Shown: piece by piece, positions 1,183 through 63,296 of the stretch
How positions within the stretch are numbered: the stretch's first letter is position 1
Layout of the letters: each line of letters begins with the position of its first letter
IMG/VR virus record: IMGVR_UViG_3300001242_000003
Location: 1 to 63,296 of that record
Origin: a virus
Lineage: Duplodnaviria > Caudoviricetes
Length of the DNA stretch: 63,296 nucleotides
Reading direction: 5' to 3' (one strand)
Made by a program: the position numbers and the translations under genes
Notes under the pieces: generated by a model
What the model was told of the DNA's origin: nothing
Seen by the model: the letters and a program-made list of their open reading frames with translations, nothing else
Database searches by the model: none

Positions 1183-1204
1183 AACTAACGAAGGTACGTA
1201 ATGG
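1183..1204. repeat. Putative cassette recombination site AACTAACG-AAGGTA-CGTAATGG
   Basis: Starts 4 nt after the SGNH stop; left arm identical to sites at 1377 and 54107; degenerate right arm. Confidence 0.7.
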
Positions 1205-1216
1205 AGGTGAAGTAAT

Positions 1217-1366
1217 TTGTTTCCATCAATTTATAATCAAAAACAAATAGATAAACTAAAACATGGCAATATTAAATTTAAAATTATTTATAAAGGTACT
1301 AACATAAACGGTGAAAAATTTTATCATATACGTATTGATTCCTTACCGTTTATTGTCATGCATTAG
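1217..1366 (+). CDS. 49-aa hypothetical protein (single-gene cassette)
   Basis: GGAGGTG RBS, TTG start, MFPSIYNQKQIDKLKHG...IVMH*; flanked by two AACTAACG sites; not in ORF track. Confidence 0.6.
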   Translation: MFPSIYNQKQIDKLKHGNIKFKIIYKGTNINGEKFYHIRIDSLPFIVMH

Positions 1367-1376
1367 GCTGTTACCC

Positions 1377-1398
1377 AACTAACGAAGGTGCGTTAGTT
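1377..1398. repeat. Putative cassette recombination site AACTAACG-AAGGTG-CGTTAGTT
   Basis: Perfect 8-bp inverted repeat with 6-bp spacer, 10 nt after a stop codon. Confidence 0.75.
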
Positions 1399-14996: not shown

Positions 14997-14998
14997 GA

Positions 14999-45385: not shown

Positions 45386-45414
45386 TTTACATTTTATTCT
45401 TTTAGTGTTATTAT
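45386..45414 (+). promoter_or_regulatory. SigA-type promoter TTTACA-N17-TATTAT
   Basis: Motif copy. Confidence 0.6.
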
Positions 45415-45436
45415 AGTTCTTGGAAGGGAGGTGTAA

Positions 45437-45607
45437 ATTATTCAGTGGTATAAGCATTTACCTAGTGGCAAATTAGTAATTGTTTTAAATAACGATGTTA
45501 CTAAAGCCACTAGAAGTGCAAACCACCGGAACATTGTTGTAGATGCAATGGGTAATAAGTATTTAGTAGAAGTGAAAGATTTAGTATTAATAGAGGAGGA
45601 TAAATAA
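45437..45607 (+). CDS. Small hypothetical protein with ATT start
   Basis: GGGAGGTG RBS, in-frame TAA directly upstream, stop overlaps the next ATG. Confidence 0.5.
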   Translation: MIQWYKHLPSGKLVIVLNNDVTKATRSANHRNIVVDAMGNKYLVEVKDLVLIEEDK

Positions 45608-45972: not shown

Positions 45973-45995
45973 GCTCCCGTTAGGGAGCTTTTACT
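45973..45995 (+). terminator. Rho-independent terminator
   Basis: GCTCCC-GTTA-GGGAGC TTTTT. Confidence 0.7.
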
Positions 45996-46005
45996 ATTTT
46001 GTGAG

Positions 46006-47310: not shown

Positions 47311-47441
47311 TTGAATATGATGTATTTTAAAATGCGATAAAATATATAAAAGGAAAAAGTTTAACAACTGCTAGAATCTTAGTAGGACCTAAACTTCCAA
47401 GAAAAGTGTGCTGTTAAGTAGCAGCTTAAGGTGGTATAAAT

Positions 47442-49031: not shown

Positions 49032-49134
49032 GAAAATAGAGGCTCTTGAATATGACAATAAAAGTTTAGTTTTTGATGCGTAGTGGTAAAGTTTTAAAAT
49101 GATTAAATTTAAACAAAATTTAATCAAATAGCTA

Positions 49135-49163
49135 TTTACAAATCTACTTTTATATGTTATAAT
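49135..49163 (+). promoter_or_regulatory. SigA-type promoter TTTACA-N17-TATAAT
   Basis: Exact motif. Confidence 0.75.
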
Positions 49164-49184
49164 AATATTTATACCTTAAAAGAG

Positions 49185-50762
49185 GTGATTCAAATAGATA
49201 AGAAACAAATACTTATTCCGCTTGTTAATGTGTTGACAGGTTTAGTTACAGTTATAGAGCAGGAAAATAAGAAAACTTTAACACATGACGGGGGAGAAGG
49301 AAGCGGTAATCATGGCCATAAAGGCAGACCAGGGAAAATTGGCGGAAGTGGTGAAGGTGGAGGAAGTTCTGAGACTGGACCAAAAACGAAAGCTGAATAT
49401 GTTGAAGCGCTTCTTGGTCATGAAAAAGCAGGATACCCTGAATCAAAAAGAGCTATATTAGGGGAGCGCAGTTTATCACATTTAGAGAATTCCTATAAAG
49501 AAATGATAGTAAAATACGGTCCTAGTAAGAAAGAAGTAAAAAGCGAAAGTGAAAAAGGTAGTAAATTTCCTAGCACTGTTAAGAAGCTTTGGGATTATAA
49601 AACTATAGCTGGTTTACGCAGTCTTGCCAGTGAATATGTAAAAGGCGATCCTAAGCAGTATTCAAGACCAGGTTTAGCTATTCATATAGCTTTAAAAGCT
49701 AGAGCTAATGGAGAAACAGACCATCTTTATAAAGGTTTAAAGGAAGCTTATCCTGAAGCGCCAAAGTCGTATGAAGAAGTGGAGAAGATGCATCCGTTAG
49801 CTTTATCATATAGATGTAAGCTTGCTGCTATTGAAGGCTGGGATAAGCTTACTGAAAGGCATTTAAAAGCAAAGCTTGCAAAGGCATATGGGTATTATAA
49901 ACCTGATTCAGCTACTGTTAAATCGGTAAAATCAGTTGCTGAGAAAACTAAGGAACAACCGGTGCCAGAAAACAATAGGCAGATTGTTCGTGGTCAAGAT
50001 AGCTTCATGAAGCGTTATGTTCCGCCAGCTAAAACAGTTAATGAATATGAAGAAGCTGTAGAAGGTTCGCTTGAATTTCATGCAAATAAAAATAAAATGT
50101 CAGTAGAAGAATACAAAAAAGCAGTAAGTGAGAAGATTCAAAGTATGATTGACAATTGTGATTTAAAAATGCGAATTAGACCAAGTGTTTTGCATGATTT
50201 CATCTTACACAATGGTGGCAGAATGAAGAATCAGTTTGAAACAGGAACTTCTGGTGGTTGTTTAAGTAGCTCAGCAAGAAGCAGATGTGAAAAATCTTAT
50301 TGGGATATTCACCATGAAGCTGACGGAGCTTCAAGACCAATTTATGGATATATGTATAGTGATGAAGCATTTGATAGTCGTGGGCCAGGTTATGTTGATC
50401 ATTATGGCGGGTTGTCAATAACTTTTAAGTCTGAGGTAAAACAAAGAGCTACAGTGACGTGTGGTGATACTTTAAATAAACACCGTGGTGAATATAATAC
50501 CAGCTTTTTAGCTAAACCGGTTACTAATGTTGATTATTCAATATTATCAAGAGATGTTTTAAGTTCACTTTCAGGTGATCCACTTAAAGCAGGCAACCTA
50601 TCTGAAATAAGAGGAGAATATTTTGAAGCTCAGATATTTGGTCCTACTACTGTCCATGATATTGCTCATGTCTCCTTTGCTGGGACTGAGCCAGAAAAAA
50701 GAATTACGGATGTTTTAGATAAACTAGGTATTCCTTGGCATAAAGGCAAAGAAAAAGAATAG
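49185..50762 (+). CDS. Head-locus protein with GGxGSGNxGHxGRPG motif and C-terminal DUF3626-like domain
   Basis: DGGEGSGNHGHKGRPGKIGGS; NQFETGTSGG...RPIYG...YG...RAT.T.GD...YFEAQIFG. Confidence 0.65.
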   Translation: MIQIDKKQILIPLVNVLTGLVTVIEQENKKTLTHDGGEGSGNHGHKGRPGKIGGSGEGGGSSETGPKTKAEYVEALLGHEKAGYPESKRAILGERSLSHLENSYKEMIVKYGPSKKEVKSESEKGSKFPSTVKKLWDYKTIAGLRSLASEYVKGDPKQYSRPGLAIHIALKARANGETDHLYKGLKEAYPEAPKSYEEVEKMHPLALSYRCKLAAIEGWDKLTERHLKAKLAKAYGYYKPDSATVKSVKSVAEKTKEQPVPENNRQIVRGQDSFMKRYVPPAKTVNEYEEAVEGSLEFHANKNKMSVEEYKKAVSEKIQSMIDNCDLKMRIRPSVLHDFILHNGGRMKNQFETGTSGGCLSSSARSRCEKSYWDIHHEADGASRPIYGYMYSDEAFDSRGPGYVDHYGGLSITFKSEVKQRATVTCGDTLNKHRGEYNTSFLAKPVTNVDYSILSRDVLSSLSGDPLKAGNLSEIRGEYFEAQIFGPTTVHDIAHVSFAGTEPEKRITDVLDKLGIPWHKGKEKE

Positions 50763-50774
50763 GAGGTGATATAA

Positions 50775-51029
50775 ATGTTGGAAGGCAAAGTAGTAGCAAC
50801 ACAAGGAACCGGAACCTTTTTAATTGACGTAGGAAAAGGAAAAGCTGTTATTTTTGAGTTTGACAAGAAAACAGTTTCAACTCCATACAACATTGACTCA
50901 ATTGTTGCCCGTGGCTATTGGGATGAATATGATGAAGAAAAAGAAGGACCAATTGATGTTTCGGCGTTAATAAAAGGCGCTAAAGAAATAGATTGGGAAG
51001 GTAAAGAAACAGGGCAGATTGCCGGGTGA
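50775..51029 (+). CDS. Small acidic protein (possible immunity/partner)
   Basis: AGGAGG RBS directly after the DUF3626-like gene. Confidence 0.65.
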   Translation: MLEGKVVATQGTGTFLIDVGKGKAVIFEFDKKTVSTPYNIDSIVARGYWDEYDEEKEGPIDVSALIKGAKEIDWEGKETGQIAG

Positions 51030-51034
51030 TATAA

Positions 51035-51865
51035 ATGCCAAAAAATCCATGGGAGCCTAAGGAAAGGCTTGAACATGGTTATTTTAAATCGCTAAACGAA
51101 ATGTTTAAATATTTGTTCGAGCTTATAAAAAATGAAGTTAATCCATTTATTATTGCCAAGACGTTAAAGTTTGCAATGAATAATCCGGTAATAAAAAGAT
51201 TTGCGTATCAAAAAGCTTCCAAAATGGTAACGCTTTTGTCAGTTGAGAACGCTAAATCATGGCGTCAGGCAGCAGCTAAAGGAAGTAAAGGCAATATTAT
51301 TTACAAAGCGTTAATGCAAGAGCTTAGAGGTCCTATTGGCGGTGAAGTGTATGCTCAAGTAATGCGCAACGCTGGTATAATAACAACTCTTCCGATAGAA
51401 ATATCAGAAAGCGTAACAGAATACATAGCTCGGGAGAGCTTCAAAGGTAAAAGAGCTTTAGAGATCGCAGAAGAAATAAAAACAATGTTTCCGGATAAAA
51501 CAACAGCTAGAGCTAAATTAATTGCTAGAACTGAAGTAAGCAAAACTTCAACAGCGTTAACAAGAGCTAGAGCTGAAAGTATTAATCTTCCTTGGTATGA
51601 ATGGCGTACAAGCGAAGACCAACGTGTAAGGTCAAGTCATAAGCATATGGATAAGGTTCTAATACGTTGGAAAGATGCACCAAGACCGGAAAAGTTAATT
51701 GGAATGCATAATCCACCAGCGCCTTATCATGCCGGAGAGATATATAATTGTAGGTGTTATCCTGCTCCAGTAGTTTATGCTGAATATGTAAAATGGCCTC
51801 ACAAAGTGTTTTATGGTGGGGCTATTGTTATGATGACTAAGAAGCAGTTTGAGCAAATAATGTAA
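51035..51865 (+). CDS. MuF / SPP1 gp7 family minor head protein
   Basis: A.LIARTE, Y.W.T..D.RVR.SH, G...NCRC. Confidence 0.9.
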   Translation: MPKNPWEPKERLEHGYFKSLNEMFKYLFELIKNEVNPFIIAKTLKFAMNNPVIKRFAYQKASKMVTLLSVENAKSWRQAAAKGSKGNIIYKALMQELRGPIGGEVYAQVMRNAGIITTLPIEISESVTEYIARESFKGKRALEIAEEIKTMFPDKTTARAKLIARTEVSKTSTALTRARAESINLPWYEWRTSEDQRVRSSHKHMDKVLIRWKDAPRPEKLIGMHNPPAPYHAGEIYNCRCYPAPVVYAEYVKWPHKVFYGGAIVMMTKKQFEQIM

Positions 51866-51874
51866 AAAAAGAAG

Positions 51875-53404
51875 GTGGTTAAAATACCTAATCCTGGAAT
51901 TAAAAATTTACCGCCGAGCACGGGAAGGATAATACAAGAAGATGGTGATGTTGTAAATTTTGCTGATGTGCTTTACAATTCAGAAGGCAAGCAATTGTTT
52001 TCCAATGACAATCCAGCAGTAGTTGAAGTGCAAAGTAAATTTAATGGTGGAATTGCAACAGGTGGTAGTAACACAACCATCATTGACGATGCTAAGAGCT
52101 TTGAAATTAATATGTTTTCTGGCAATGTAGTAAAAGTAATTGTTGCTGATATTGAATATTACCGTACCGTTTTGAGTAACACAGAAACAACTTTAACAAT
52201 TTCTAGCTTGCCCGGTTCTGCTGCAAGTGCCATTTTGGGAACAGCAGGAACCGCTGAAGTTACTGTAATTTGTGCAAATAAAGGTATTGGTGGTAACGAA
52301 TATACAGCTGAAATTATAGAAGCTCCTGGTACTGATGATAATTTAAGTGCTTCATTAATTGGACTTGTTTTAACTATTTATTTGGGTAAAACAGGAGGAG
52401 TTTTAGACAATACTAAAAATACTGCTACCGCTGTAGCTGCTGTAATTGACCAAATACCCGAGTTTTTTGCAACAATGACAGGCTCAGGAGGGGTAATTGA
52501 GGTTACTGTTGAGCCAGTATCATTTAATGGCGGTATAGCAATTGTTTCTGTATCCGTTGGTTGTGATTATCAAATCAATACTGATTTATCGGTATTAGCT
52601 ACCTCTGAAAGGCAAGATACTCAAACTTCAGCATTAAATGACATACTTGAGCAACTTGAGATGGGCAATGCGCCTAACATATTAAGAAATACGGGTAAGA
52701 TGCCTCCTATAGGCACTGTATTAGGCGCCGGTGGGACATATGAGTCAGACGTTATTGACCGTCCAAATCAAAACATACCGGTTGGACAGACTAGAATATG
52801 GGTGTATGCAGATCAATCTGGGGTTTTAAATTTACGTGAATCTCATAATGGAATAAATTGGACAACAACAAATACTTTGGCTGTTTCTGCCGGAATAACT
52901 AACATTATGAATTGGTTTAAAATGACGCGCAGATATGCGAAAGTAGAGTATGTCAATGGTGGTGTAGCACAAACAGAATTTATTTTGTTGCAATATTTCC
53001 TTGGCGTAGGAGTTACGCTCATAAAAGCCGATGACGGTGATATAGTTTCCATAGGATTAAGAGCTGATGCACCAGTCATTAATCCAGCATTGTCAGCGAG
53101 TGAAATAGCCCTTTTAAAGGGTATATTAAGTCAACTTCAGGGTGGCGGTTCTGGAGCTGCGCCTGTGCAACTAACTGGTAGTACAGTGGAAAAAGCATTT
53201 AGTATTACACCAAACGATAACGCAGACCTGACCAATAATACAATAGCCATTTTTGTGGGCAGCGGTGGTAATCTTAAAATAGACACCATAAATGGTGATA
53301 CCATAACCATGACTAATATTGCTGTCGGGGTGTGGCACCCCATTAAAGTGAAAAAGGTTTATGCAATCGGCACAACAGTTACCAGTGTTTTGGGTGCTTA
53401 CTGA
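51875..53404 (+). CDS. Putative virion decoration protein with cassette-derived C-terminus
   Basis: Thr/Gly-rich beta protein; QLTGST junction encoded at ~53168. Confidence 0.6.
   Translation: MVKIPNPGIKNLPPSTGRIIQEDGDVVNFADVLYNSEGKQLFSNDNPAVVEVQSKFNGGIATGGSNTTIIDDAKSFEINMFSGNVVKVIVADIEYYRTVLSNTETTLTISSLPGSAASAILGTAGTAEVTVICANKGIGGNEYTAEIIEAPGTDDNLSASLIGLVLTIYLGKTGGVLDNTKNTATAVAAVIDQIPEFFATMTGSGGVIEVTVEPVSFNGGIAIVSVSVGCDYQINTDLSVLATSERQDTQTSALNDILEQLEMGNAPNILRNTGKMPPIGTVLGAGGTYESDVIDRPNQNIPVGQTRIWVYADQSGVLNLRESHNGINWTTTNTLAVSAGITNIMNWFKMTRRYAKVEYVNGGVAQTEFILLQYFLGVGVTLIKADDGDIVSIGLRADAPVINPALSASEIALLKGILSQLQGGGSGAAPVQLTGSTVEKAFSITPNDNADLTNNTIAIFVGSGGNLKIDTINGDTITMTNIAVGVWHPIKVKKVYAIGTTVTSVLGAY
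53166..53185. repeat. Cassette entry site TGCAACTAACTGGTAGTACA
   Basis: Exact 20-bp match to 61093-61112 in an otherwise unrelated gene. Confidence 0.8.
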
Positions 53405-53955
53405 TGTTAGGTCTTACTATCGACATACCAACCGCTGCAGTACAAAATTTCCATATTATTGATAATTTTAACCGACCAGACAATAGCGTTACTCTTGGTA
53501 ATGCGGAAACGGGGCAACCATGGTCAGGTGCTACTGGATATGGAATTATTGAGAATCAAGCTTACGCGCTAAGTGCTAATAATGGAGCAGTAATCGATTC
53601 GTATTTAGCAAATGCTACATTACAGGCCACTCTAGCAACGAATATCGGGTTAGGTAGATTACTTTTTCGTTATACCTCAACATCTAATTATTTGCAAATA
53701 GTCCCAGTAATCAGTGGCGCATATAAAATATATAAAACCGTAGCAGGTAGTGCAGTAGAGATTGGATCTCATAATACAATGCCTGCAAACGGTGACTTAA
53801 TTAAAGTAGTCTACGTCGACTCATTAATTAAATTGTATATTAATGGAACTCTTAAGTTAACAGTTGCCGAAGAATTTAATAAAAATGCAACTAAAGTCGG
53901 CATAAAGAGTGGTTATACAGCCAATAGATACGATAATTTCCAATTGGAGGGGTAA
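53404..53955 (+). CDS. Lectin/ConA-like beta-sandwich protein (cassette gene)
   Basis: DNFNR.D...LG.AETGQ.W ... YING...KVGI...DNF. Confidence 0.6.
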   Translation: MLGLTIDIPTAAVQNFHIIDNFNRPDNSVTLGNAETGQPWSGATGYGIIENQAYALSANNGAVIDSYLANATLQATLATNIGLGRLLFRYTSTSNYLQIVPVISGAYKIYKTVAGSAVEIGSHNTMPANGDLIKVVYVDSLIKLYINGTLKLTVAEEFNKNATKVGIKSGYTANRYDNFQLEG

Positions 53956-53957
53956 AA

Positions 53958-54104
53958 ATGATAGTTACCGTGGCTAAAATTATGATTATGGATGAGGACG
54001 TTGGGGAAATGGTTATAGTTCCCGACCTGTCGGAATATGGTAATGTTTCGTGGGGAAAAATTTCAGAGACCGAGGAAACAATGACAGTTGAAATCTACGA
54101 ATAA
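53958..54104 (+). CDS. 48-aa hypothetical protein (cassette gene)
   Basis: GGAGGGG RBS; stop abuts the recombination-like site; not in ORF track. Confidence 0.6.
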   Translation: MIVTVAKIMIMDEDVGEMVIVPDLSEYGNVSWGKISETEETMTVEIYE

Positions 54105-54106
54105 CC

Positions 54107-54128
54107 AACTAACGAAGTTGCGTTAGTC
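54107..54128. repeat. Putative cassette recombination site AACTAACG-AAGTTG-CGTTAGTC
   Basis: 7/8 inverted repeat with 6-bp spacer, 2 nt after a stop; 20/22 identical to 1377-1398. Confidence 0.75.
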
Positions 54129-54186
54129 CGTAAGGTAGTTTAATTTATTGTATAAAATCTTGTATAATATTTAATTTTGAAAGAAG

Positions 54187-55488
54187 GTGGTGAATAATGT
54201 GAAGGCGTTTTATGGTTCAAAAATAAGTCCTAACCAAACTAAGACTCCAGAAGGATTTTTAATTTGTCATAATGTTCCTATAACTAGAGTTGGTTGGCTA
54301 GAGTATTTAGGCCAAGAGCTTGGCTTAAAAGACGCTTATGATCAAATTGTTAAAGTTTATAGGAGTTATGAAGAAGTTTTTAATCCAGCAACAATGGCTT
54401 CATTTGAGAGTAAGTCTGTCACTGATGGTCATCCCTCAAGTGATGTAAGAGCAGACAATTATAGTAGTTATGAAAAGGGGCAAGTTACAAATGTAAGGCA
54501 AGGTCAAGGAAATGAATCAGATTTATTATTAGCTGATTTAGTCATAAAAGACCCGTTGCTTATATCAGAAATTGATCATAATGGCAAGCGTGAAGTCTCT
54601 TGTGGTTATGATTGCAATTATATTCCAATTCCAGGCGAAGAAGGTAAGTATAGCCAAGTCCAAATAAGAGGTAATCATGTTGCAGTTGTTCCTTCCGGAA
54701 GAGCCGGCAACAGGGTTTCAATAAAGGATGAAAGTCCAAAAATAAAAAGGTATGAAAGGAGAAAGAAAATGCCTATTAATAAAAAAGGTATATTCGGAAG
54801 AATGTTATCAGCGTTTGCAAGGGATGCTGAACCTGAGGAATTAGCTGAGGCTGCAAAAATGGGGCCTACAGAAGATGGCATCGGAATTGATCCAAATGTT
54901 CAAGTTGTACCAGCTAAGCCAGTAGTTGATGAACCATCGCAACAAAATATTAGTATTTCAGAGCTTGTTAAACAAGTGCAAGCGTTAACCGCAGTCGTAG
55001 GTCAGCTTTTGCAGGCTGAAAAATCTGAACCGAATCACAGTCCTGATGACCTTGAAAGCTTAATTTCAGAGCTTGAGGCGCCAAATGGCCAACGTGACAA
55101 TGCTGGTGAAGAATCAGTAACTATTTCTCCGGAACAAATGACTGATGCTGAACCAATTTCTTCGCCTTGTGATAGGCCTAATAATCCTATTCCGGGAGCT
55201 GATAGAAATGTTGTTTTAAATGCTATTAAGGCTATAAAGCCAATTATTGCTGCTATTCCCGATGCCGGTGAAAGAAAGAAAGCGTCTGATGCTCTTGCTA
55301 AAACTTTCAGGGATCAAATTGTTCAATCTCCTGTAAAGTTTGGTAACTTAAATGGCTATGAAGCTATTCAAAGCGCTATTTCAGCCAATGCTAGACAAAC
55401 AAAAGACAGCAATAAGCCTGACCCTGCTGAAGAAGGAAGAAATTGGGCTAAAAAATATAATCCTCATTGCAAAGAAGGAGGCAAATAA
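54187..55488 (+). CDS. DUF2213 prohead protease / scaffold
   Basis: TPEGFLIC.NVPI.R.G, VT.GHP, EVSCGY, NHVAVV..GRAG. Confidence 0.88.
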   Translation: MVNNVKAFYGSKISPNQTKTPEGFLICHNVPITRVGWLEYLGQELGLKDAYDQIVKVYRSYEEVFNPATMASFESKSVTDGHPSSDVRADNYSSYEKGQVTNVRQGQGNESDLLLADLVIKDPLLISEIDHNGKREVSCGYDCNYIPIPGEEGKYSQVQIRGNHVAVVPSGRAGNRVSIKDESPKIKRYERRKKMPINKKGIFGRMLSAFARDAEPEELAEAAKMGPTEDGIGIDPNVQVVPAKPVVDEPSQQNISISELVKQVQALTAVVGQLLQAEKSEPNHSPDDLESLISELEAPNGQRDNAGEESVTISPEQMTDAEPISSPCDRPNNPIPGADRNVVLNAIKAIKPIIAAIPDAGERKKASDALAKTFRDQIVQSPVKFGNLNGYEAIQSAISANARQTKDSNKPDPAEEGRNWAKKYNPHCKEGGK

Positions 55489-55489
55489 T

Positions 55490-56002
55490 ATGCCAGGTCA
55501 AGCAATTGGAACAAGTATGCTTTATGGATATCCGGGTTCTTTTGCTCGGAATGGTGATTGTGTTATAAGAAACAGAATTGTTAAAACAACTGCTCCTGCT
55601 TTTGGTGACCCAGTTGTTTTAAACACTGATGGTACTGTTACAAAATTTGGTGCAGCTGGTACAGCAGCTACTTTTGATGGTGTTGCTGTTCGTGAAGTAA
55701 TGCAAAATGCAGCTTATTTGCCTGCTATTGGAACTTATGCAGTTGGCCAGCCGTGTGATGTTATTCAGCGTGGTTCTGTTTCGGTTATTTGTAATGTTGG
55801 CACTCCTACTGCTGGTGGGGCTGTATACATAAGAGTTACAGCAAATGCAGGTATTCCGGCTGGAGTTGTTGGCGGATTTGAATTCCGTTCTGATACTGAT
55901 GACGACAAGTGTCTTTTAATTACAAATGCCAAATGGACGAATGGTTTAATTGATGCTAATAAAGTGGCTGAATTAACCATACTTAGTCGGCTTAATCCCT
56001 AA
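55490..56002 (+). CDS. Head decoration / cement protein
   Basis: MPG.AIG..M..G.PG...RGSVSV.C..G.P..GG.VYIR; ATG 55490 after GGAGG. Confidence 0.75.
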   Translation: MPGQAIGTSMLYGYPGSFARNGDCVIRNRIVKTTAPAFGDPVVLNTDGTVTKFGAAGTAATFDGVAVREVMQNAAYLPAIGTYAVGQPCDVIQRGSVSVICNVGTPTAGGAVYIRVTANAGIPAGVVGGFEFRSDTDDDKCLLITNAKWTNGLIDANKVAELTILSRLNP

Positions 56003-56026
56003 AATAAATTAAGGAGGTAAAATACG

Positions 56027-57055
56027 TTGAGTGTAAAAACTTATCCAATTAAGGATATAAGAACAATTGACAGCTTGGTAGCAAGCCAAGGCGGATTCTC
56101 AATGATGACTACAGACGCAGCTACGGCTGGCGGCATGGCGTTTTTAATTGGTGAACTTGAAAAGCGTGATCCTAAAGTGCGTGAGCCATTGACTTCAGTT
56201 ACGTGGGCTCGTGATATTGTTGCCAAAACTGGTGGCGGATGGGTAGAATTTACTTCTACTATGAATGTAAGTTATGCTACTGCCGGACCAAATGATCATG
56301 GTATTATTGGTGGTGAAACTACTAATATTCCGGTAATGCAGGCTGATATTGGCAAAGATATTTACAAAGTTTTCACCTGGGGTAATATTCTCAAAATACC
56401 ATTTGTTGATCAGGCAAAACTGCAAAATATTGGCCGCAGTCTTGACGATATACTCGATAAAGGTATTCGTCTAAACTATAATAAAACTGTTGACCAAAGC
56501 GTTTATAAAGGATTTACATCCGCTGGTACTACTGGAATTATAAATGATCCTAATGTTGTAGCGACAAGCGTTGCAAATGGTGCAGCCGGTACCAGTGCTT
56601 GGAACACAAAAACTCCGGATGAAATTTTGAATGATATTAATCAGTTAATGATTGCAGGTTGGGCTGCTGCTGAGTATGATTTATCAGGTATGCCTAACCA
56701 TATCTTAATTCCTCCTGCTCAGTACGCTTATATTGTTGGTACTAAAGTTTCAGCAGCTGGTAACGTATCAATCCTGGAGTTCTTGTTGAATAATAATATC
56801 GGTAAAAACCAGGGCGTTGATTTAGTAATTGCTCCGTCAAGATGGTGTATTGGAGCTGGAACAGGTAATACAGACAGAATGCTTGCTTATGTAAATGATG
56901 AAGACAAACTTTATTTTGACCTTACTGTTCCGTGCGCTCGGATTATGACTCAGCCTTCAGTTACTGACATGGCGTATCTTACTGCTTATGCAGCACAAAT
57001 TGGTGTTGTTAAGTTTCTTTATTTGCAGCCGCCCCGTTATGGTGACGGAATCTAA
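56027..57055 (+). CDS. Major capsid protein (DUF2184 family)
   Basis: FL..ELEK.DP...EPL...TW.RDI; W..KTPDEIL.DIN; PNHILIPP. Confidence 0.92.
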   Translation: MSVKTYPIKDIRTIDSLVASQGGFSMMTTDAATAGGMAFLIGELEKRDPKVREPLTSVTWARDIVAKTGGGWVEFTSTMNVSYATAGPNDHGIIGGETTNIPVMQADIGKDIYKVFTWGNILKIPFVDQAKLQNIGRSLDDILDKGIRLNYNKTVDQSVYKGFTSAGTTGIINDPNVVATSVANGAAGTSAWNTKTPDEILNDINQLMIAGWAAAEYDLSGMPNHILIPPAQYAYIVGTKVSAAGNVSILEFLLNNNIGKNQGVDLVIAPSRWCIGAGTGNTDRMLAYVNDEDKLYFDLTVPCARIMTQPSVTDMAYLTAYAAQIGVVKFLYLQPPRYGDGI

Positions 57056-57068
57056 TTAAATAAACGAT

Positions 57069-57088
57069 GGGCAGGCGTTTACCTGCCC
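57069..57088 (+). terminator. Hairpin after the capsid gene
   Basis: GGGCAGG-CGTTTA-CCTGCCC; lacks a strong T-tract. Confidence 0.5.
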
Positions 57089-57121
57089 GCTACATATTAA
57101 ATAATTTGGGAGGTTTTATTT

Positions 57122-57445
57122 ATGGTAAGAGTATTCTCAAAAAGAACTTTTGAATTTACAAGACGTGAGGAAAAAGATGGCCTAATGGCTGCTGTAGAAG
57201 TTGCAAGAACTGGTACGCTTGATTTTTTTGATTTGCCTGATTGGGCTGTATCAGACCCGTTATTTAAGTGGGCGCAACAAGATGGAGACATCGAAGTTAT
57301 TTTTAACAAAGCTGATGAAAAGGAAGCTGAATTGAATGCAACTATTCAGCCGGCGCAAGCTGTTAATACTGCAAATGCAACACAGCAAAATAAGAACAAT
57401 AATGGCGCTAATTATAATAAAAACACAAGTTATGGTAAAAAATAA
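57122..57445 (+). CDS. Hypothetical head-associated protein
   Basis: PDW...DP.F..A..DG.I motif following the MCP. Confidence 0.65.
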   Translation: MVRVFSKRTFEFTRREEKDGLMAAVEVARTGTLDFFDLPDWAVSDPLFKWAQQDGDIEVIFNKADEKEAELNATIQPAQAVNTANATQQNKNNNGANYNKNTSYGKK

Positions 57446-57466
57446 TCGGTAAGGCAGGTGTTATAA

Positions 57467-57991
57467 ATGCCTTTTCCTGAAAATATAATTCCTGATACGT
57501 ATCCAACAAGTGTATCAAGTGAATTTACTATTGTTTCCAATGCTTCAAATTTACGTTTTGGTGATAATCCTGCATATACGATTGACGATTTTGTTGCGAT
57601 GTTTACACAATTTGGTCCTGATGCAAATGAGAATTATATTGTTTCTCAAACAATGCTACAACTGTATATAAACCTTGCAAGCGCCAGTATTCAAGAATCA
57701 AGGTTTCATGAGTATTGGCAGCTTTGTATGGGTTTATTTGTAGCACATTTTGCAACGCTTATTCTTGAAGGAATAAAGCAACCGGGAGGAACTTCCGCAA
57801 GCATTATTGAACTTGGCAAAGCTAAAGGTTTGCGTACTTCGAAGTCTGTTGGTCCGATAAGCACAAGTGTTGATTATAGTGCTATTGTTCAAGATTTAGA
57901 TGGTTGGGCTTCTTGGAAACTTACAACTTTCGGTCAGCAATTAGCAACAATATCAAAGCTAGTTGGTAAGGGTGGAATGATGGTATGGTAA
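57467..57991 (+). CDS. Head-tail adaptor (DUF4054-like)
   Basis: LFVAH..., SKSVG..S...D, W..T.FGQ. Confidence 0.8.
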   Translation: MPFPENIIPDTYPTSVSSEFTIVSNASNLRFGDNPAYTIDDFVAMFTQFGPDANENYIVSQTMLQLYINLASASIQESRFHEYWQLCMGLFVAHFATLILEGIKQPGGTSASIIELGKAKGLRTSKSVGPISTSVDYSAIVQDLDGWASWKLTTFGQQLATISKLVGKGGMMVW

Positions 57992-58476
57992 GCGTTACTG
58001 TTACTTCGCCTATTAATAATGTTGAAAAAATGCGTAAGATGGCAGAAAAATTATCTAAGTTGAATGTGTTAGTTGGCATTCCGCAAGAAAAGTCAAGTAG
58101 GCCAAAAGGAAAAATAACAAATGCTGAATTAGCTTATATTCATACACATGGTTCGCCAATTAATCACATTCCGGCAAGGCCAATTATTGAGCCAGCAATA
58201 GAAGATGAAGAGAATAAAGCTATTATTTCTATTGGTTTAAAAGAAGCAGCAAAAGCCGCACTTAACGGTGATGAGCAGACAACAATGTTGGAGTTAAATA
58301 AAGCAGGAATGTCTGCTCAAAATGCTGTTCGTGATTGGTTTACTAATTTTAAAAACAATTGGGCGCCAAATTCTCCGTTAACAATCAGGAGAAAGGGCAG
58401 CGATAGGCCATTAATTGATACTGCTGAATTAAGAAAATCAATAACATATGTAATAAGAAAGAAGGGTCAAAGATGA
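57985..58476 (+). CDS. Neck / tail completion protein
   Basis: VGIP...NA.LA.IH..G...IPARP...PN.P.TI..KGSD.PLIDT. Confidence 0.75.
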   Translation: MVSVTVTSPINNVEKMRKMAEKLSKLNVLVGIPQEKSSRPKGKITNAELAYIHTHGSPINHIPARPIIEPAIEDEENKAIISIGLKEAAKAALNGDEQTTMLELNKAGMSAQNAVRDWFTNFKNNWAPNSPLTIRRKGSDRPLIDTAELRKSITYVIRKKGQR

Positions 58477-58823
58477 TTGATGTTAGTGAAATTATTTATG
58501 ATCCTGACTTTTGCCAGAATTTTATTGCTAAAAGAAAATCAGGCAAATGGGTAGACGGAAGGTATATTGAAGAGTTAACAGAAATTAATTTAACTGGAAT
58601 TATTGTGCCAGCTAGTTCACATGAATTAAAGCAAATACCAGAAGGCGATAGAGTTACAGGCATGATGGCATTTTATGCTGTAAATGAAATTTATACTACA
58701 AATGAAACTGGAACTTCAGATATAATTGTTTGGAAATCAAAAAGTTATAGAATAATGAATGTAACCCCTTATTCCGATTATGGATACTTTTTAGCTTTAG
58801 GCGTTTATATGGAGAGTGTGTAA
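58473..58823 (+). CDS. Head closure protein
   Basis: L..IPEG.R...DII.W....YR motif; position. Confidence 0.7.
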   Translation: MIDVSEIIYDPDFCQNFIAKRKSGKWVDGRYIEELTEINLTGIIVPASSHELKQIPEGDRVTGMMAFYAVNEIYTTNETGTSDIIVWKSKSYRIMNVTPYSDYGYFLALGVYMESV

Positions 58824-58826
58824 ACC

Positions 58827-59360
58827 ATGGCTGATATTATTCTTACTTTAAAGCAAATAGAAAATATTTTTCAAAGTCTTACTTGCAGCTTGACTGGTCT
58901 CAATAATGATTCAGGGGTAAGACTGTCATGGCCAACTAAAGGTTCGCCAGGATGGAGTGTGAACGAAGATGTTGTTTTTATTCAGGTTGTGTTTGGTTCA
59001 GATTCGTATACACAACAAAGAGAAACAGAATATCAGGATGATATAGCTAATGATGTTAAGAAGGTTATTGCATCTTATACCAGAGTTCACAATATAAAGT
59101 GGACTATTTACGGTCCTAATAGTTATGAACATGGCGAATCAATTAAGAATGGAATTTATTTGCCAACTACAAGAGGTATTTTGAGACATAATAATTTAAG
59201 TTTGATTCTTAATGTTGGTGATGTTAAAAGGTTTCCTGAATTGTTTAACGGACAATGGTGGGAAAGGGTTGATTTTGAGGCTAGTTTTAACGAAAAAGTG
59301 GTACGATATTCAACTATACCATATTTAGTTGGTGTAAATATACAAGTTAAAAAGGGGTGA
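58827..59360 (+). CDS. Neck / tail terminator protein
   Basis: YGPNS...PE..NGQWW.R.D. Confidence 0.7.
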   Translation: MADIILTLKQIENIFQSLTCSLTGLNNDSGVRLSWPTKGSPGWSVNEDVVFIQVVFGSDSYTQQRETEYQDDIANDVKKVIASYTRVHNIKWTIYGPNSYEHGESIKNGIYLPTTRGILRHNNLSLILNVGDVKRFPELFNGQWWERVDFEASFNEKVVRYSTIPYLVGVNIQVKKG

Positions 59361-59366
59361 TATAAA

Positions 59367-60476
59367 TTGGCAACTTTGCCTTTAAGTGATATTGTTAATG
59401 TATCTGTGGTAGTATCCCCGATAGCAGCAACCAGGTCTAATTTTAATTTAGGGCTTATTATTGGTACTAGCACTGTAATTAGTGCTAGTGATAGAATAAA
59501 GCTTTATACAAAAGTTGATGATATGGTTATTGATGGATTTACAATTAATAGCTCGGAGTATAAAGCAGCAACTCTTTATTTTTCTCAGGTTCCTAAGCCA
59601 CAGAAGGTTGCTATAGGTCGTTGGGATACAACTGGAGCTGAAACAGCCGTACAAGCTGTAACGCTTTGTAGAGCTAAAAATACAGATTGGTATTCATGTA
59701 TGATATGCGGGGCTGTTAAAGCTGATATTATAGCTGTTTCAGAGTATATTGAGGCGGCATTGCCAAGTAGCACTTATTTTTATACTACTTCGGATGCCGA
59801 TGTAATACCAAAAACTGCTGGAAATATTATGGCAACTTTAAAAGCAAGTAACTACATGCGAACTATCGGTCAATATAGCACTTATGCAGATGCGGTTGCT
59901 TCGATTATGGGGTATGCAATGGGGGCAAATAGTTCTACAGCTAATAGCTCATATACGCTGGCGTATAAAAAAGAAGTAGGAGTAACGTCAGAAGTTTTAT
60001 CGTTAACTGATCTTACTGCTATAAAAAGCCAAAATGGGAATGCTTATGTTAATCGTGGTAATACATACGATATCTTTGAGCAAGGTATTATGGCCAATGG
60101 CCAACATTTTGATGAGGTCCTTGGCCTTGATATGCTTACTAATAGCATTCAAATGGCAGTTATGGATCTTTTGGTTGGTGTTAGGAAAGTTCCGCAAACT
60201 GAAGGCGGAGTAACTTTACTTATAAATGCTATTACGGGTCCGTGTAACGATTCTAAAAATAAAGGATTTATTGCTCCTGGTATTTGGAAAGCTGCTCCTG
60301 TCTTGACTTTGGAAACAGGAGACACATTATCACAAGGCTATTTAATTTTGTCTGAAACAATTGATAGTCAAAGCGAAGCTGATAGGTCAGCTAGAATTGC
60401 CCCGCCAATCTATGTTTGTGTTAAATTGGCTGGCGCCATTGAATTTGTTTTAATTGAAGTCTTAGTAAACAGATAA
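59367..60476 (+). CDS. Tail sheath protein (DUF3383)
   Basis: LPLSDIVNV.V, EYKAA..YF.Q.P.P, KVPQT..G, R..R.APPI...KLAGAI. Confidence 0.88.
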   Translation: MATLPLSDIVNVSVVVSPIAATRSNFNLGLIIGTSTVISASDRIKLYTKVDDMVIDGFTINSSEYKAATLYFSQVPKPQKVAIGRWDTTGAETAVQAVTLCRAKNTDWYSCMICGAVKADIIAVSEYIEAALPSSTYFYTTSDADVIPKTAGNIMATLKASNYMRTIGQYSTYADAVASIMGYAMGANSSTANSSYTLAYKKEVGVTSEVLSLTDLTAIKSQNGNAYVNRGNTYDIFEQGIMANGQHFDEVLGLDMLTNSIQMAVMDLLVGVRKVPQTEGGVTLLINAITGPCNDSKNKGFIAPGIWKAAPVLTLETGDTLSQGYLILSETIDSQSEADRSARIAPPIYVCVKLAGAIEFVLIEVLVNR

Positions 60477-60491
60477 GGAGGTGTATGTTAA

Positions 60492-60926
60492 ATGCCTTAT
60501 AGTGTATATAGTTTTGCAGATGTGTCCATGACTATTTCCCATCCTTCGGTTGGCCAATATATTTCTGAAAGTGGCGAAGGTCTTGGTTCAATAGCAGTAA
60601 GTAGGGCAACAGATAATACTGTGCATGATTTATCAGCTGACGGAGCTGTTATGGTAAGCAAAATAAAAGGTAGAAACGGAACAATAGCTATAACCATACA
60701 GCAAATATCAAACTTAAATAAGTGGTTGTTAAAATGGTTTAACTATCTTGAAACGGCTGCTACTGACCAATGGGCTGATACTAAAGTAGTGATTCGGTCT
60801 CCAGTTATGCAAGATTTAATTACCGCACTTGGAGTATCGCCTCAAAAACCAGCTGAAAAACCATACCAAGCGCAAGGTCAAAATATATCCTGGGCCTTGA
60901 TGGCTGCTGATATTCAACAAGACTAG
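60492..60926 (+). CDS. Tail tube protein
   Basis: YSF.DV...G.G.I...ADG.VM.S...G.NG.I.I..QQ.S. Confidence 0.85.
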   Translation: MPYSVYSFADVSMTISHPSVGQYISESGEGLGSIAVSRATDNTVHDLSADGAVMVSKIKGRNGTIAITIQQISNLNKWLLKWFNYLETAATDQWADTKVVIRSPVMQDLITALGVSPQKPAEKPYQAQGQNISWALMAADIQQD

Positions 60927-60941
60927 GAGGTGGTATAATAA

Positions 60942-61349
60942 ATGACTATAGCTGGTGAAACTGTAAATGTGCAGTTTTTAAACAAAGGTTCTATAATAAG
61001 TGAGCAAAATCCTCTTCCTGTGCGGAATTGTTTTCAAACTCCAGGAGGGCTTTGGGTTTATCAGAAATATGCTGATACCGGGGAGGTGCTTATGCAACTA
61101 ACTGGTAGTACACTTCAGGAAGAAAAAACGCAGGCAAATGCTGTTACAGGTGTAGTAACATTTTCTGCAAATATTTCAACTATTGAAATTTTAAATACAG
61201 ATACAGTTAATACAGGTGTTTTTACTGTTAACGGAATACCTATTACAGTACCTCCTACTGGTATATGGAAAGATGGAGTTGGTGGAACCCCAGGTGCAAC
61301 AGTCACCGTTGCTGGTTCAACCGCTTACATCTTACATAGATTTTCGTAG
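60942..61349 (+). CDS. Hypothetical virion protein with cassette-derived C-terminus
   Basis: Contains the QLTGST junction at ~61095. Confidence 0.6.
   Translation: MTIAGETVNVQFLNKGSIISEQNPLPVRNCFQTPGGLWVYQKYADTGEVLMQLTGSTLQEEKTQANAVTGVVTFSANISTIEILNTDTVNTGVFTVNGIPITVPPTGIWKDGVGGTPGATVTVAGSTAYILHRFS
61093..61112. repeat. Cassette entry site TGCAACTAACTGGTAGTACA
   Basis: Exact 20-bp match to 53166-53185. Confidence 0.8.
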
Positions 61350-61362
61350 GAGGTGGTAGATA

Positions 61363-62574
61363 ATGGGATATAAGCAAATAGGAATAGCAACCAAAACAAT
61401 AGACAGTAGTAAATTAACTACCGCATCCGTCACACCAGATAAAACAGATTTCATCAAAGAAGTTAAAAATTTATTTGACCATACGGATGCAAAAGTACTT
61501 AACCACAGAATTTTAGTAGAAACAGGTGGCACAGACGGTACAGTCTATAGCGACACACGTATGACCACAGGTTATATCCCTGTCAGACCAGGAGATAACT
61601 TAATATGTTCATATTTGAGCACCTCCGGGGTAGTAAGTACAGTTGTTTATTATATCGTAGCAGTTTACGACAAGAATCAAAAACGAATAGTTTTTACGAC
61701 GGTAACCAGTTCAACCTATATTGTACCTGCGAATGCTGAATATGTGCGTTTCTCCTTTAATACTTCTTATTACGCGAGAAAAGCATATGTTCAAGTGGCT
61801 GTCGGAACTGAAATAAGTTTTCCGACAAAATATAAGAAACAAATGGATATATCTCTCTTGGATAAACCATACAAACCTGTTAAGGATACAATAGCTGAGT
61901 TAGTGCAAAATAGTTTATTATTGACTGGCACAAGCACAGTTAACATTAAACTTGTCGGTGATAGTATCACTCATGGGGTAGGCGGTACAGGGTTTTTAGA
62001 GGACGGTAATTTAATTATCTCTGGTTTTAACCGTAACCCTAATGGTTATTGTTGGGCGAAACTTTTTAAAGAATATATGGAAGCAAAATTTAATTGTTTG
62101 GTAACAAATAACGCCTGTCGTGGCACACACTCAGGTTATTTAAGACAATATTGGGATACTCTAGTCAGTCCCACTGATGATATTGTCATATGTATGTATG
62201 GCACTAATGACCGTGGGTCAGGTGCCTACAGTGCATTATTAGAAAATTTACAGCTTTTTCTAGACAGAGTGGATATAGATAATCAAAAAATAATCTTGAT
62301 GAGTAGTATTCAAGCATCTGTAACAAATGATGCAACTTACACCTTTCATATGGAAGATGTTGACAATGCAATAATGTCAATAGCAGCCGCAAACAACGTA
62401 GAATATATTTCTTTATTTAAGTTGTTTAGAGATTATATTGATGCGAGAGGTATTAGTTTTGATACACTCTCTGCTGATGGATTACACCCTAACGATGCGG
62501 GTTATGATATTATGTTTTATCTTATTTTAAATGCTTTGGGACTGGGTAATAAAGTTAGTGGTGCTACTTGGTAA
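61363..62574 (+). CDS. SGNH/GDSL hydrolase-domain protein (cassette gene)
   Basis: GDSITHG, G (RG), GTND, DGLHPN. Confidence 0.88.
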   Translation: MGYKQIGIATKTIDSSKLTTASVTPDKTDFIKEVKNLFDHTDAKVLNHRILVETGGTDGTVYSDTRMTTGYIPVRPGDNLICSYLSTSGVVSTVVYYIVAVYDKNQKRIVFTTVTSSTYIVPANAEYVRFSFNTSYYARKAYVQVAVGTEISFPTKYKKQMDISLLDKPYKPVKDTIAELVQNSLLLTGTSTVNIKLVGDSITHGVGGTGFLEDGNLIISGFNRNPNGYCWAKLFKEYMEAKFNCLVTNNACRGTHSGYLRQYWDTLVSPTDDIVICMYGTNDRGSGAYSALLENLQLFLDRVDIDNQKIILMSSIQASVTNDATYTFHMEDVDNAIMSIAAANNVEYISLFKLFRDYIDARGISFDTLSADGLHPNDAGYDIMFYLILNALGLGNKVSGATW

Positions 62575-62611
62575 GTTAACTAACGAAGGTACGTAATGGA
62601 GGTGAAGTAAT

Positions 62612-62761
62612 TTGTTTCCATCAATTTATAATCAAAAACAAATAGATAAACTAAAACATGGCAATATTAAATTTAAAATTATTTATAAAGGTACTAACAT
62701 AAACGGTGAAAAATTTTATCATATACGTATTGATTCCTTACCGTTTATTGTCATGCATTAG
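62612..62761 (+). CDS. Duplicate of the 49-aa cassette ORF
   Basis: Copy of 1217..1366. Confidence 0.55.
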   Translation: MFPSIYNQKQIDKLKHGNIKFKIIYKGTNINGEKFYHIRIDSLPFIVMH

Positions 62762-62827
62762 GCTGTTACCCAACTAACGAAGGTGCGTTAGTTTTATAAT
62801 ATAATAAGCGAAAGGATATATAAAATA

Positions 62828-63256
62828 ATGAATAAGCGTGTTTTGTTTAAAACATTTGAATTAGATGGCAGAAAGTGGCGTATTGGGAAATTTAATGCGA
62901 TGGTAGGTTCATATATTGCATATAAACTTATGGCCGAAGTAATGCCGTTAGGAATAGCGCAACAAGCAGGCATACCGGTTCCAGCTGGCGGAAAATCAAT
63001 GAGTAAGGCAGATTTTATAGAATTACAAAAAGATTGTTTATCTTGTTGTTATGAATTTCTTCCGGCTGGTCCAGCTCCAGTTATTAATGAAAACGGAACT
63101 TTTGGAGTTGAAGACTTAGAAAACAATGTAAAAGTTGTTATGGCTTTAACGATTCAAGCTTTGATTTTTAATGTTTCAGATTTTTTTACAGAAAACCTCT
63201 TGAGTTCACTAGCCGATTCAATGAAGACTTTAATCCCGCCCGTTGCAAAAATATAA
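62828..63256 (+). CDS. Tail assembly chaperone (duplicate copy)
   Basis: Identical translation to 1433..1861. Confidence 0.8.
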   Translation: MNKRVLFKTFELDGRKWRIGKFNAMVGSYIAYKLMAEVMPLGIAQQAGIPVPAGGKSMSKADFIELQKDCLSCCYEFLPAGPAPVINENGTFGVEDLENNVKVVMALTIQALIFNVSDFFTENLLSSLADSMKTLIPPVAKI

Positions 63257-63296
63257 ATGAGTTTCTTTATGCTCCGGTAATAGCTGGAGTTTGGAA

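Follow-up and report, generated by a model that had tools for sequence, protein, structure and literature searches.

The tail tube and tail chaperone genes of the phage genome considered here (IMG/VR record IMGVR_UViG_3300001242_000003; Caudoviricetes; 63,296 nt, the whole of which we refer to as the window) are separated by 1.9 kb of DNA that, as we see it, is an acquired accessory structural module made up of exchangeable cassettes with conserved recombination boundaries, the boundary at the 3' end being a site of the Xer-like kind. We put the chances that this reading is right at a little over even, about 55%. The block is an insertion; its first cassette is shared with a phage contig that is otherwise unrelated; it has two definable boundaries, and alignment breakpoints between different loci pile up at both; the number of units varies between relatives; and the 3' site is physically linked, in several phages, to a recombinase gene whose product is predicted from sequence to act on it.

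All of the features described below are on the + strand, as are all of the genes of this phage, which comes from groundwater. The left flank of the block is the tail tube gene (60492..60926; Pfam KPP10_Orf10, E = 2e-38), and the right flank is the tail assembly chaperone gene (62828..63256; Pfam Phage_TAC_15, E = 8e-8; PHROG 1688). Between them lie orf135 (60942..61349), an open reading frame (ORF) that belongs to no Pfam or PHROG family; a 403-codon SGNH/GDSL esterase gene of the tail-fibre type (61363..62574; Pfam Lipase_GDSL_2), with an N-terminal domain of ~190 amino acids (aa); a first site (site 1, 62572..62605); orf49, a 49-codon ORF (62612..62761); and a second site (site 2, 62766..62799). 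The original prediction held that tube and chaperone genes are usually adjacent and that this block had been inserted between them, and so it proved. In all 12 related loci, found by way of the tube protein (54–67% identity), the gap between the two genes is 15–70 nt, and in none of the 12 are there relatives of orf135, the SGNH gene or orf49, or a 22-mer resembling the site. Because the tube gene directly precedes the chaperone gene in every one of these relatives, the 1.9-kb block must be an insertion. Its GC content is not distinct, and a blastn search with window 59300–63296 found no match among 50,697 GenBank phage records.

The extent of the first cassette emerges from comparison with a 187-kb viral contig (locus L046, record G001) that was found in a search with the esterase and that encodes a 94% identical protein. 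Window 61096..62590, comprising the C-terminal domain of orf135 and the entire SGNH esterase gene, matches this contig over 1495 bp with 93.1% identity. Identity begins at the heptamer AACTAAC (61096) within orf135 and ends after AACTAACGAAGGT within site 1 (62590), just past the fifth base of the site's spacer, which is the sole hint we have of strand exchange taking place in the spacer. Beyond the cassette, the only match between window 43300–63296 and the whole of G001 is 34 nt at the second site, and G001 contains no homologue of the window's major head protein. There, the same C-terminal 85 residues of orf135 are joined to another N-terminus. Since identity starts and stops where it does, the boundaries proposed earlier for a first cassette, from an 'entry site' to the first palindrome, are the true ends of a recently transferred unit. 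How the block first came to lie between tube and chaperone is explained by neither boundary, because there is no site at the block's left end.

The two ends of the cassette are different things. The entry site, placed at 61093, is not another copy of the palindrome: it shares with the sites just the heptamer AACTAAC, which occurs in the window close to chance frequency (22 times on both strands; 12.6 ± 3.2 expected), and a different conserved element stands there instead. This element, which we call the 5' joint, reads AACTAACTGGTAG (61096..61108), codes for (Q)LTGS, and forms the left boundary of cassette 1 at the very point where identity with L046 starts. A second copy (53169..53181) lies within a 509-codon fibre-like gene. 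The 12-mer ACTAACTGGTAG is found exactly twice in the window, at 53170 and 61097, against 0.34 times expected from shuffled sequences; the first of these is 938 nt upstream of a site at 54107, and the second 1482 nt upstream of site 1. Across the site-bearing loci, 20 of 38 non-site occurrences of AACTAAC extend to the full AACTAACTGGTAG, and a joint occurs 537–1832 nt upstream of 26 of the 44 sites. Written (A)ACTAACTGGTAG, it is always in frame and always specifies (Q/K)LTG(S/R). Of 29 occurrences of LTG[SR] in long ORFs, 25 are encoded exactly by CTA ACT GGT AG(T/A), two carry one synonymous change, and two look unrelated; the residues to either side vary widely. The leucine codon, CTA, is a rare one, making up 11 of the 208 leucine codons in five window genes. 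Because the codons are invariant, the rare one included, a protein motif alone does not explain the joint. A looser motif, NPxSxQ-LTGS, does extend upstream of it in the protein, in codons that vary. The GGAGG-N5-ATG that was said to stand directly before the entry sequence (CAACTAAC) is present at 61082..61094, by our reading of the sequence, in frame with orf135 and two codons ahead of the joint. It may be an internal start of orf135, which has a strong start of its own at 60942.

orf135 is probably an adapter-type protein, and a chimeric one. Its codons 1–51 are lineage-specific, and its codons 53–135 make up a conserved beta-sandwich domain; the family alignment has the same look, variable N-termini followed by a conserved C-terminal ~85 aa that start at the joint. 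The first 28 aa match the beginning of a 171-aa protein at locus L077 (E = 1e-5), so that orf135 is a chimera fused at the joint. In the AlphaFold model, residues ~55–135 are predicted with pLDDT ~90, and residues 1–53 with pLDDT below 50. A sequence search of the PDB with orf135 found no match, and Foldseek none in the PDB at E ≤ 0.001. Weak cupin/jelly-roll rows from Foldseek, among them the C-terminal domain of STIV A223 (E = 0.022), are leads only, as are XepA and PRD1 P5; the structural neighbours of orf135 in the Atlas are unnamed viral clusters.

The cargo is better defined. The esterase matches PF13472 at residues 198–383 with 73.3 bits (cut-off, 32.9; E = 4.5e-20), and its translation contains the catalytic blocks GDS, GTND and DGLHPN (DxxH). 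Its homologues form the C-termini of tail fibres of 561 and 731 aa whose genes lie where fibre genes usually do, ahead of the lysis genes. Deacetylation of surface polysaccharides by the SGNH domains of phage fibres has reportedly been described. We suspect, from the sequence relationships, that the esterase is a virion-borne, receptor-modifying enzyme docked by way of orf135, and that cassette cargo in general would serve host recognition.

The 3' boundary is a 34-bp site. The 18-mer CAACTAACGAAGGTRCGT has five matches in the window with up to three mismatches, at 54106, 62577 and 62771 and in two repeat copies; 0.01 are expected by chance, and none of 100 shuffles gave such matches. A three-mismatch match at 4686, within ORF 4417–4764, was taken as chance. 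Two like-oriented sites had been predicted, at 62578 and 62772, and both are real: AACTAACGAAGGT[A/G]CGT occurs at each position on the same strand, 194 bp apart, with a further copy at 54107. Both had also been called palindromes, which holds for 62772, a perfect 8+6+8, and fails for 62578, where the right arm is degenerate and the sequence does not fold. Site 2, the intact one, reads TTACCC-AACTAACG-AAGGTG-CGTTAGTT-TTATAA, and its central 22-mer is the same in 37 of the other 41 instances that we aligned. Site 1 comprises the left arm TAAGTT-AACTAACG and the spacer AAGGTA, its right arm having degenerated beneath the ribosome-binding site of orf49. The third site (54101..54134), with spacer AAGTTG and two bases that differ, closes a block (51875–54186) that is absent from relatives. 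Replacement of the right arm by a Shine-Dalgarno sequence is seen where a gene starts right after a site: by TAAGGAG in L045 (2001–2040), and by GGAGGTG in the window (62592–62611).

Pattern scans found the site sequence at 28 loci in viral contigs (by means of a 17-mer) and at 39 loci in metagenomes. Of the 28, 12 were set aside as chance matches that lie within long ORFs or have no palindrome (L019, L020, L027, L029, L030, L032, L033, L036, L037, L040, L041 and L044). After deduplication, 39 distinct 52-nt contexts remained, which with the three of the window make 42 aligned instances. Across these, the inner 22 nt are all but invariant, and the outer consensus is TTAnCn...nGnTAA, so that the whole 34-bp site can be written TTAnCn-AACTAACG / AAnnTG / CGTTAGTT-nGnTAA, and its consensus arms TTAnCnAACTAACG - 6 bp - CGTTAGTTnGnTAA: 14-bp inverted arms around a 6-bp asymmetric spacer. 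Inverted arms around an asymmetric, variable 6-bp spacer are the anatomy of a simple tyrosine-recombinase site, and the lox/dif-type geometry, inverted arms of 11–14 bp and an asymmetric spacer of 6–8 bp, is the one found here. The 3' site is most likely the core site of a small Xer-like tyrosine recombinase. When the arms were held fixed and the spacer left free, cassette-type contexts yielded AAGGTG eight times, AAAATG four times, and single instances of AATAAG, AATGTG, AAATTG and GAGGTG; of the 29 free-spacer contexts, about ten look like chance. The three sites in the window have three different spacers, AAGTTG, AAGGTA and AAGGTG. If exchange needs spacer identity, such unlike spacers would shield the genome from losing the 8.5 kb of essential genes that lie between the sites.

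Sites number from one to three per record. Among the 44 sites of 40 non-redundant loci, 37 have the end of a same-strand ORF at −16 to +22, the stop codon often being the TAA of the left arm, and 41 have one polarity relative to the upstream gene. Directly before the site there is an SGNH/GDSL esterase gene in the window and in L046, L065, L066, L068, L090 and L095; at other loci there is a gene for a LamG-like or fibre-like protein plus a small ORF. (The LamG label is our reading of the sequences; Pfam gave no LamG match.) In one 53-kb record, G002 (loci L023 and L038), the ~210 bp that follow each of two sites are 94% identical, and the contig stops in the second copy. Either the assembly may have broken at a repeat, or two phages may have formed a cointegrate.

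Comparison of loci with one another shows breakpoints concentrated at both boundaries. Alignments of at least 150 bp among the 40 loci have 354 internal ends, of which 60 fall at the site (zone −12 to +34; 5.7 expected) and 38 at the joint (zone −8 to +20; 1.9 expected), figures that are rough because pairs are not independent and because the loci were all picked for holding a site. Breakpoints of both kinds are present—the same cargo in another backbone, and the same backbone with other cargo—and the claim that the boundaries recur around other cassettes is upheld. Unit number varies too. Three sites are found at L065 (1913, 2320 and 3112, of which the last is altered at two positions of its left arm), and one site with one cassette at L083, yet the two loci share their DNA as far as the joint's end (89%) and again from the last site onward (73%). 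The L065 cassette encodes a 532-aa esterase, and its sites enclose a 71-codon unit and a unit of 126 + 62 codons. Since L065 has three sites and L083 one, small site-bounded units are evidently gained or lost between relatives, as had been proposed.

The proposal was built on the window's own 49-codon unit, and for that unit it finds no such support. The unit itself is as described: orf49 begins with TTG, and is preceded 9 nt upstream by GGAGGTG, at the position of the right arm of site 1, as its own ribosome-binding site. Finding orf49 elsewhere between the same sites was to have been the check. Among 5.8 billion proteins (26–86 aa considered), only its own record came back; there was no relative in viral contigs, and the best E among the fetched loci was 1.2. 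Contigs nearly identical to the window were found in four other sequencing runs; two of them (X5 and X10, from two other studies) span both sites with the orf49 unit present, and one spans the joint. No cassette-skipping joint or circle junction was seen in these Logan contigs, which are of low depth, from which rare variants are dropped, and which are uninformative wherever they leave the window uncovered. A strange joint in X14, which runs from 62689 to 62500 with foreign letters in the middle, seems to come from another organism.

The window contains a second array of the same kind, at 51875–54186: the 509-codon fibre-like gene with its joint at 53169, then p183 and p48, and finally the site at 54107. 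The head-morphogenesis gene adjoins the protease gene in three of four related loci, all three of them proviral relatives, and window 51875–54186 is therefore an insertion also. At the fourth, L110, 1.5 kb of DNA without a match lies ahead of the protease gene. A LamG-type cassette follows the head-morphogenesis gene in L096; in L074 the order at this position is a further, different cassette, a site, a recombinase gene and the protease gene. The 61.9-kb metagenome contig that holds L074 and L077 is the closest backbone relative of the window phage that carries sites.

The recombinase at L074 is one of a family. Its members are proteins of 279–283 aa with a SAM-like N-terminal domain and a PF00589 catalytic domain, and in seven variants of 56–94% aa identity (at L018, L023, L028, L073, L074, L118 and L153) the gene starts 90–400 nt downstream of a site, on the same strand. 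Wherever we met this family, eight times in all, its gene adjoined a site. The best NCBIfam matches are XerA, XerC and XerD, at 186–203 bits where the cut-offs are 220–335; on these scores we class the proteins as Xer-like, and not as members of XerC, XerD or XerA. Two that are 94% identical stand beside sites with different spacers. Several of the genes lie amid late structural operons, with a fibre cassette on one side and head or connector genes on the other. Tyrosine recombinases of other kinds are present in G002, G003 and G005, not beside sites. A decayed module survives in the jumbo-size contig at L106 (G001 11626–15078; 956–1995 in our orientation), which has an esterase-like gene, a half site, 63 nt, a variant site (AAAATG) and a frameshifted recombinase gene.

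Unless we misjudge these sequences, then, cassettes of this kind would be traded as follows. Cassette 1 comprises the last 84 codons of the adapter and the SGNH esterase gene, bounded by an in-frame joint at its 5' end and, at its 3' end, by a site that overlaps the last gene's stop codon; orf49, as a second and small unit, follows between site 1 and the intact site 2. Phages of very different kinds that draw on one gene pool carry the same boundaries around SGNH esterases, LamG-like proteins and pieces of fibres, and recombination at these boundaries would swap or add cargo while the adapter's phage-specific N-terminus and its reading frame were kept. The 3' site would be recombined by the Xer-like enzyme that several phages encode just downstream of it. 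Because the window phage has no recombinase of its own, its sites would be footprints of past exchange, or substrates for an enzyme provided in trans by a co-resident phage. One can go further and imagine a dedicated system for exchanging cassettes of virion-borne receptor enzymes, common to the virulent myoviruses, the temperate phages and the jumbo phage of one environmental gene pool. Its parts would be the Xer-like enzyme of some members, the 34-bp 3' site, a fixed 12-nt in-frame joint through which any cassette could be spliced to the adapter N-terminus of any phage, and heterospecific spacers that protect against self-deletion; it would be integron-like, virus-owned, and devoted to host range. 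We offer this larger proposal tentatively, and would sooner bet against it.

Several observations sit poorly with an exchange module served by a recombinase, quite apart from the roughness of the breakpoint figures. The window matches neither PF00589 nor PF00239, the tyrosine and serine recombinase families, and contains no integrase of any kind, so nothing in cis can act on its sites. Site 1 keeps its left arm and spacer, and has lost its right arm. The joint has no right arm either, and its spacer is unlike that of the 3' site, which makes it unlikely that one recombinase serves both boundaries; exchange at the 5' joint is more likely to proceed by short-homology recombination. A variant of the window phage without the orf49 unit, another of the checks proposed at the outset, was not seen in the low-depth contigs, nor was one without the cassette. 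A 21-mer of the site has no match in 185,579 species genomes, with neither a lysogen nor a host copy among them, and the same genomes hold no close relative of the recombinase, the best being 33% identical, in an Acholeplasma record. The recombinase gene could be just another piece of cargo that lands beside a hotspot. Finally, in three of the 44 sites the spacer is reversed relative to the neighbouring genes. These three are at L081 (72–93), L086 (1967–1988) and L088 (2000–2021); the L081 flanks both match L038/L100, and apparently the 6-bp spacer alone has been flipped.

The alternative that survives best, which we consider possible and yet doubtful, is that both boundaries are passive linkers. 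The joint would then be a motif kept for the protein's sake where two domains meet, and the palindrome either a stem-loop at the 3' end of an RNA or the attP of the temperate members. General or relaxed homologous recombination between co-infecting phages would simply make use of these short patches of identity, with no dedicated recombinase, as has been proposed for PeSLs and for the conserved motifs in the adhesin genes of T-even phages. The window does encode a UvsX-like recombinase and resolvases, and no site-specific recombinase; the joint is coding sequence, and the motif that leads up to it is written in varying codons; and the single polarity of 41 of the 44 sites, with 37 of the 44 on a stop codon, is what one expects of an RNA element at the 3' ends of genes. 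Many sites are also followed, within 10–100 nt, by a separate and true G+C-rich terminator. Modular shuffling at the conserved promoter-plus-stem-loop units (PeSLs) of T4-type phages is documented, moreover, in the portions of that work cited here (PMC2839356, PMC4122927). Against this stands the behaviour of the site as nucleic acid. There is no covariation in the extended hairpin formed with the outer arms, where 77.1% of cells pair and shuffles reach 76.8% (175 of 500 shuffles equalled or exceeded the observed value), and site 1 and the L046 site, both of which mark cassette ends, fold as RNA no better than shuffled sequences do. The arms are thus conserved as sequence, not as fold. Rfam, in E-value mode, gave no match in 13 site-bearing loci. 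A scan of 53800–63296 for promoters and terminators found nothing at the + strand sites, nor any consensus for either; promoter-like hits in this region numbered 44, against 35 ± 6.6 in shuffles. A composite of sigma-70 promoter and terminator stem-loop, of the PeSL type, is accordingly absent from the + strand sites, although relatives do differ by insertions, deletions and replacements at the motif, as they do at PeSLs. Passive linkers likewise leave unexplained why the codons of the joint never vary, even the rare leucine one, and why one recombinase family stands beside the site in all eight of its occurrences.

A second alternative, which we think improbable, is that the palindrome is the attP core of temperate phages with an Xer-like integrase, and that all other copies, the three of the window included, are relics with no present role in cassettes. 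The distance of 90–400 nt between the site and the integrase gene downstream, in seven lineages, would suit an attP, as would the decayed pair in G001 (half site, variant site and frameshifted gene) and the contrast between L074, with site, integrase and protease, and the window, with site and protease. Yet within 2 kb of at least 30 of the 44 non-redundant sites there is no integrase gene; the separate 5' joint at the other end of the cassettes would go unexplained; late structural operons, where several of the integrase genes lie, are odd places for a canonical attP-int pair; and no host attB or lysogen was found among the species genomes.

That these are integrons of the true type, with attC-like sites that fold as single strands, an IntI-type integrase, and sequential capture at an entry site, is very improbable indeed, even though the arms AACTAAC and GTTAGTT resemble the core and inverse core sites (consensus RYYYAAC and GTTRRRY), and co-oriented cassettes end in the element, at the 3' ends of ORFs, in variable numbers (37 of 44 sites; L065 with three, L083 with one) and in arrays of two or three. 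attC sites are 57–141 bp long, have two pairs of boxes, and are conserved as fold rather than as sequence; the present site is 34 bp long, has one pair of arms and an invariant inner 22 nt, and does not covary. The linked recombinases score 73–99 bits on the integron-integrase model TIGR02249, for which the cut-off is 265, and the window offers neither a recombinase nor an attI-like entry site, its 5' boundary being an in-frame coding joint and not a core site. Two defining features of integrons thus already fail, and the integron-like mechanism that the original prediction implied is not established; its cassette idea is largely right, and related sequences support it. An invertible fibre segment does not fit either, the window having no PF00239 match and its sites being direct repeats. 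A diversity-generating retroelement, a CRISPR-repeat mimic, cos, a nut-like antiterminator and an IS200/IS605 hairpin were dropped on general grounds, for want of a partner gene or fitting geometry.

The genome in which all of this is found encodes a contractile tail, by PHROG and Pfam, and has a DNA polymerase, a primase and genes of nucleotide metabolism of its own. In its classification the record is a complete virus with direct terminal repeats, and window 1–1901 is an exact copy of 61396–63296, so that half of the feature reported here lies inside the repeat. This 1901-bp repeat either is physically present at both ends or arises from an assembly that overlaps itself on a circular map; because it is exact, the unique genome is 61,395 bp. 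The sites at 1183 and 1377 (repeat copies of sites 1 and 2; 1183..1398, by the identity of window 1–1901 with 61396–63296) are not extra copies, since they duplicate those at 62578 and 62772 by way of the repeat. The sheath gene (59367–60476; DUF3383) precedes the tube gene, and the tape measure gene (2034–3416) is reached across the repeat. In four relatives the match to the sheath is interrupted by 355–390 bp between residues 151 and 152 of the window protein (L008 510–865; L014 2135–2523; L015 1852–2240; L016 4929–5317), which could be an inserted domain or an intervening element. Two genes of 525 and 84 codons between the portal and head-morphogenesis genes (49185–51029) have no counterpart in L111–L113, where both flanking genes adjoin, and this block is marked by no site or joint. 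Genes for a Nol-like carbamoyltransferase, two thymidylate-synthase-like proteins (one with a kinase-like fusion) and a dCMP deaminase (20452–23820, 28118–28654 and 36758–37588) together suggest that the DNA of this phage may contain a modified base.

Exchange of receptor-binding genes sets the host range of phages, and how unrelated phages manage to trade such genes cleanly is mostly unexplained. Here, both ends of a traded unit can be seen at base resolution; at the 5' end the frame is kept, and the 3' end is built like a recombinase site and lies near a candidate enzyme. If that enzyme acts on the site, the result would be a testable mechanism for exchange of host range across phage families, and phage engineers would have from nature a portable pair of docking sequences with which to exchange tail enzymes. 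Even if the boundaries are passive linkers, the idea behind PeSLs would be widened from one phage lineage to a mixed community. Either way, we gain an explanation for fibre-type genes in odd places, such as between tube and chaperone. Among the papers listed, our literature search found no description of such cassettes, which is not proof that none has been published.

Of the systems that have been described, the nearest counterpart is the PeSLs, conserved units of promoter and stem-loop, recombination between which gives rise to insertions, deletions, replacements and mini-circles, according to the portions of the reports cited here (Arbiol et al. 2010, PMC2839356; Comeau et al. 2014, PMC4122927). 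In both cases, ORFs that are not essential have short conserved sequences on their flanks, and related phages differ at these places by insertions, deletions and replacements. PeSLs, as presented there, are composites of early promoters and terminators, many copies of which populate the hyperplastic regions of one lineage. The site discussed here, in contrast, is neither promoter nor terminator, occurs one to three times per genome, and is spread across unrelated backbones. It is also paired with an in-frame coding joint, and physically linked to an Xer-like recombinase gene.

In anatomy, the closer parallels are Cre/loxP of P1, XerS/difSL, XerH/difH and archaeal XerA/dif, simple tyrosine-recombinase sites with the recombinase gene adjacent. 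These too have inverted arms of 11–14 bp around an asymmetric spacer of 6–8 bp, and a small recombinase without an arm-binding domain encoded beside the site; and there too the spacer varies while the arms stay fixed. Their business is dimer resolution and replicon maintenance, with one site per replicon, whereas the sites here end cassettes, form arrays of up to three, and are present in phages without the enzyme, whose action on them is a prediction. Integrons, for their part, have in common with these modules co-oriented cargo, each piece with its terminal palindromic element, a variable number of units, and an arm that resembles the core site; the modules differ in having no IntI and no attI, a site half the size of attC that is conserved in sequence, and a first boundary that lies within a reading frame.

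Fibre genes furnish the remaining comparisons. In T-even phages, recombination at conserved motifs in the distal fibre and adhesin genes was reportedly described by Tetart et al. in 1998; as here, short conserved sequences within fibre genes bound variable segments, and receptor-binding parts are swapped. The T-even motifs belong to one gene family in one phage group, whereas a single 12-mer of fixed codons is found here across many proteins, and the unit that is swapped runs on through one to three whole downstream genes to an intergenic palindrome. The invertible tail-fibre segments and shufflons of Gin/gix, Cin/cix, Pin and Rci/sfx likewise use an in-frame crossover, by which a fixed N-terminal part acquires one C-terminal part or another, along with a downstream gene. 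They do so with inverted repeats that an invertase flips within one genome; in the present case the boundaries are direct, the window has no invertase, and the alternatives reside in other phages. Last, a fibre gene and its partner that are common to distant phage families have been ascribed to ancient illegitimate recombination (Gonzalez-Serrano et al. 2023, PMC10579305). There, as here, a host-recognition module is found across phage families; the portion of that account cited here names no conserved boundary sequences, whereas in the modules described above both boundaries can be seen.

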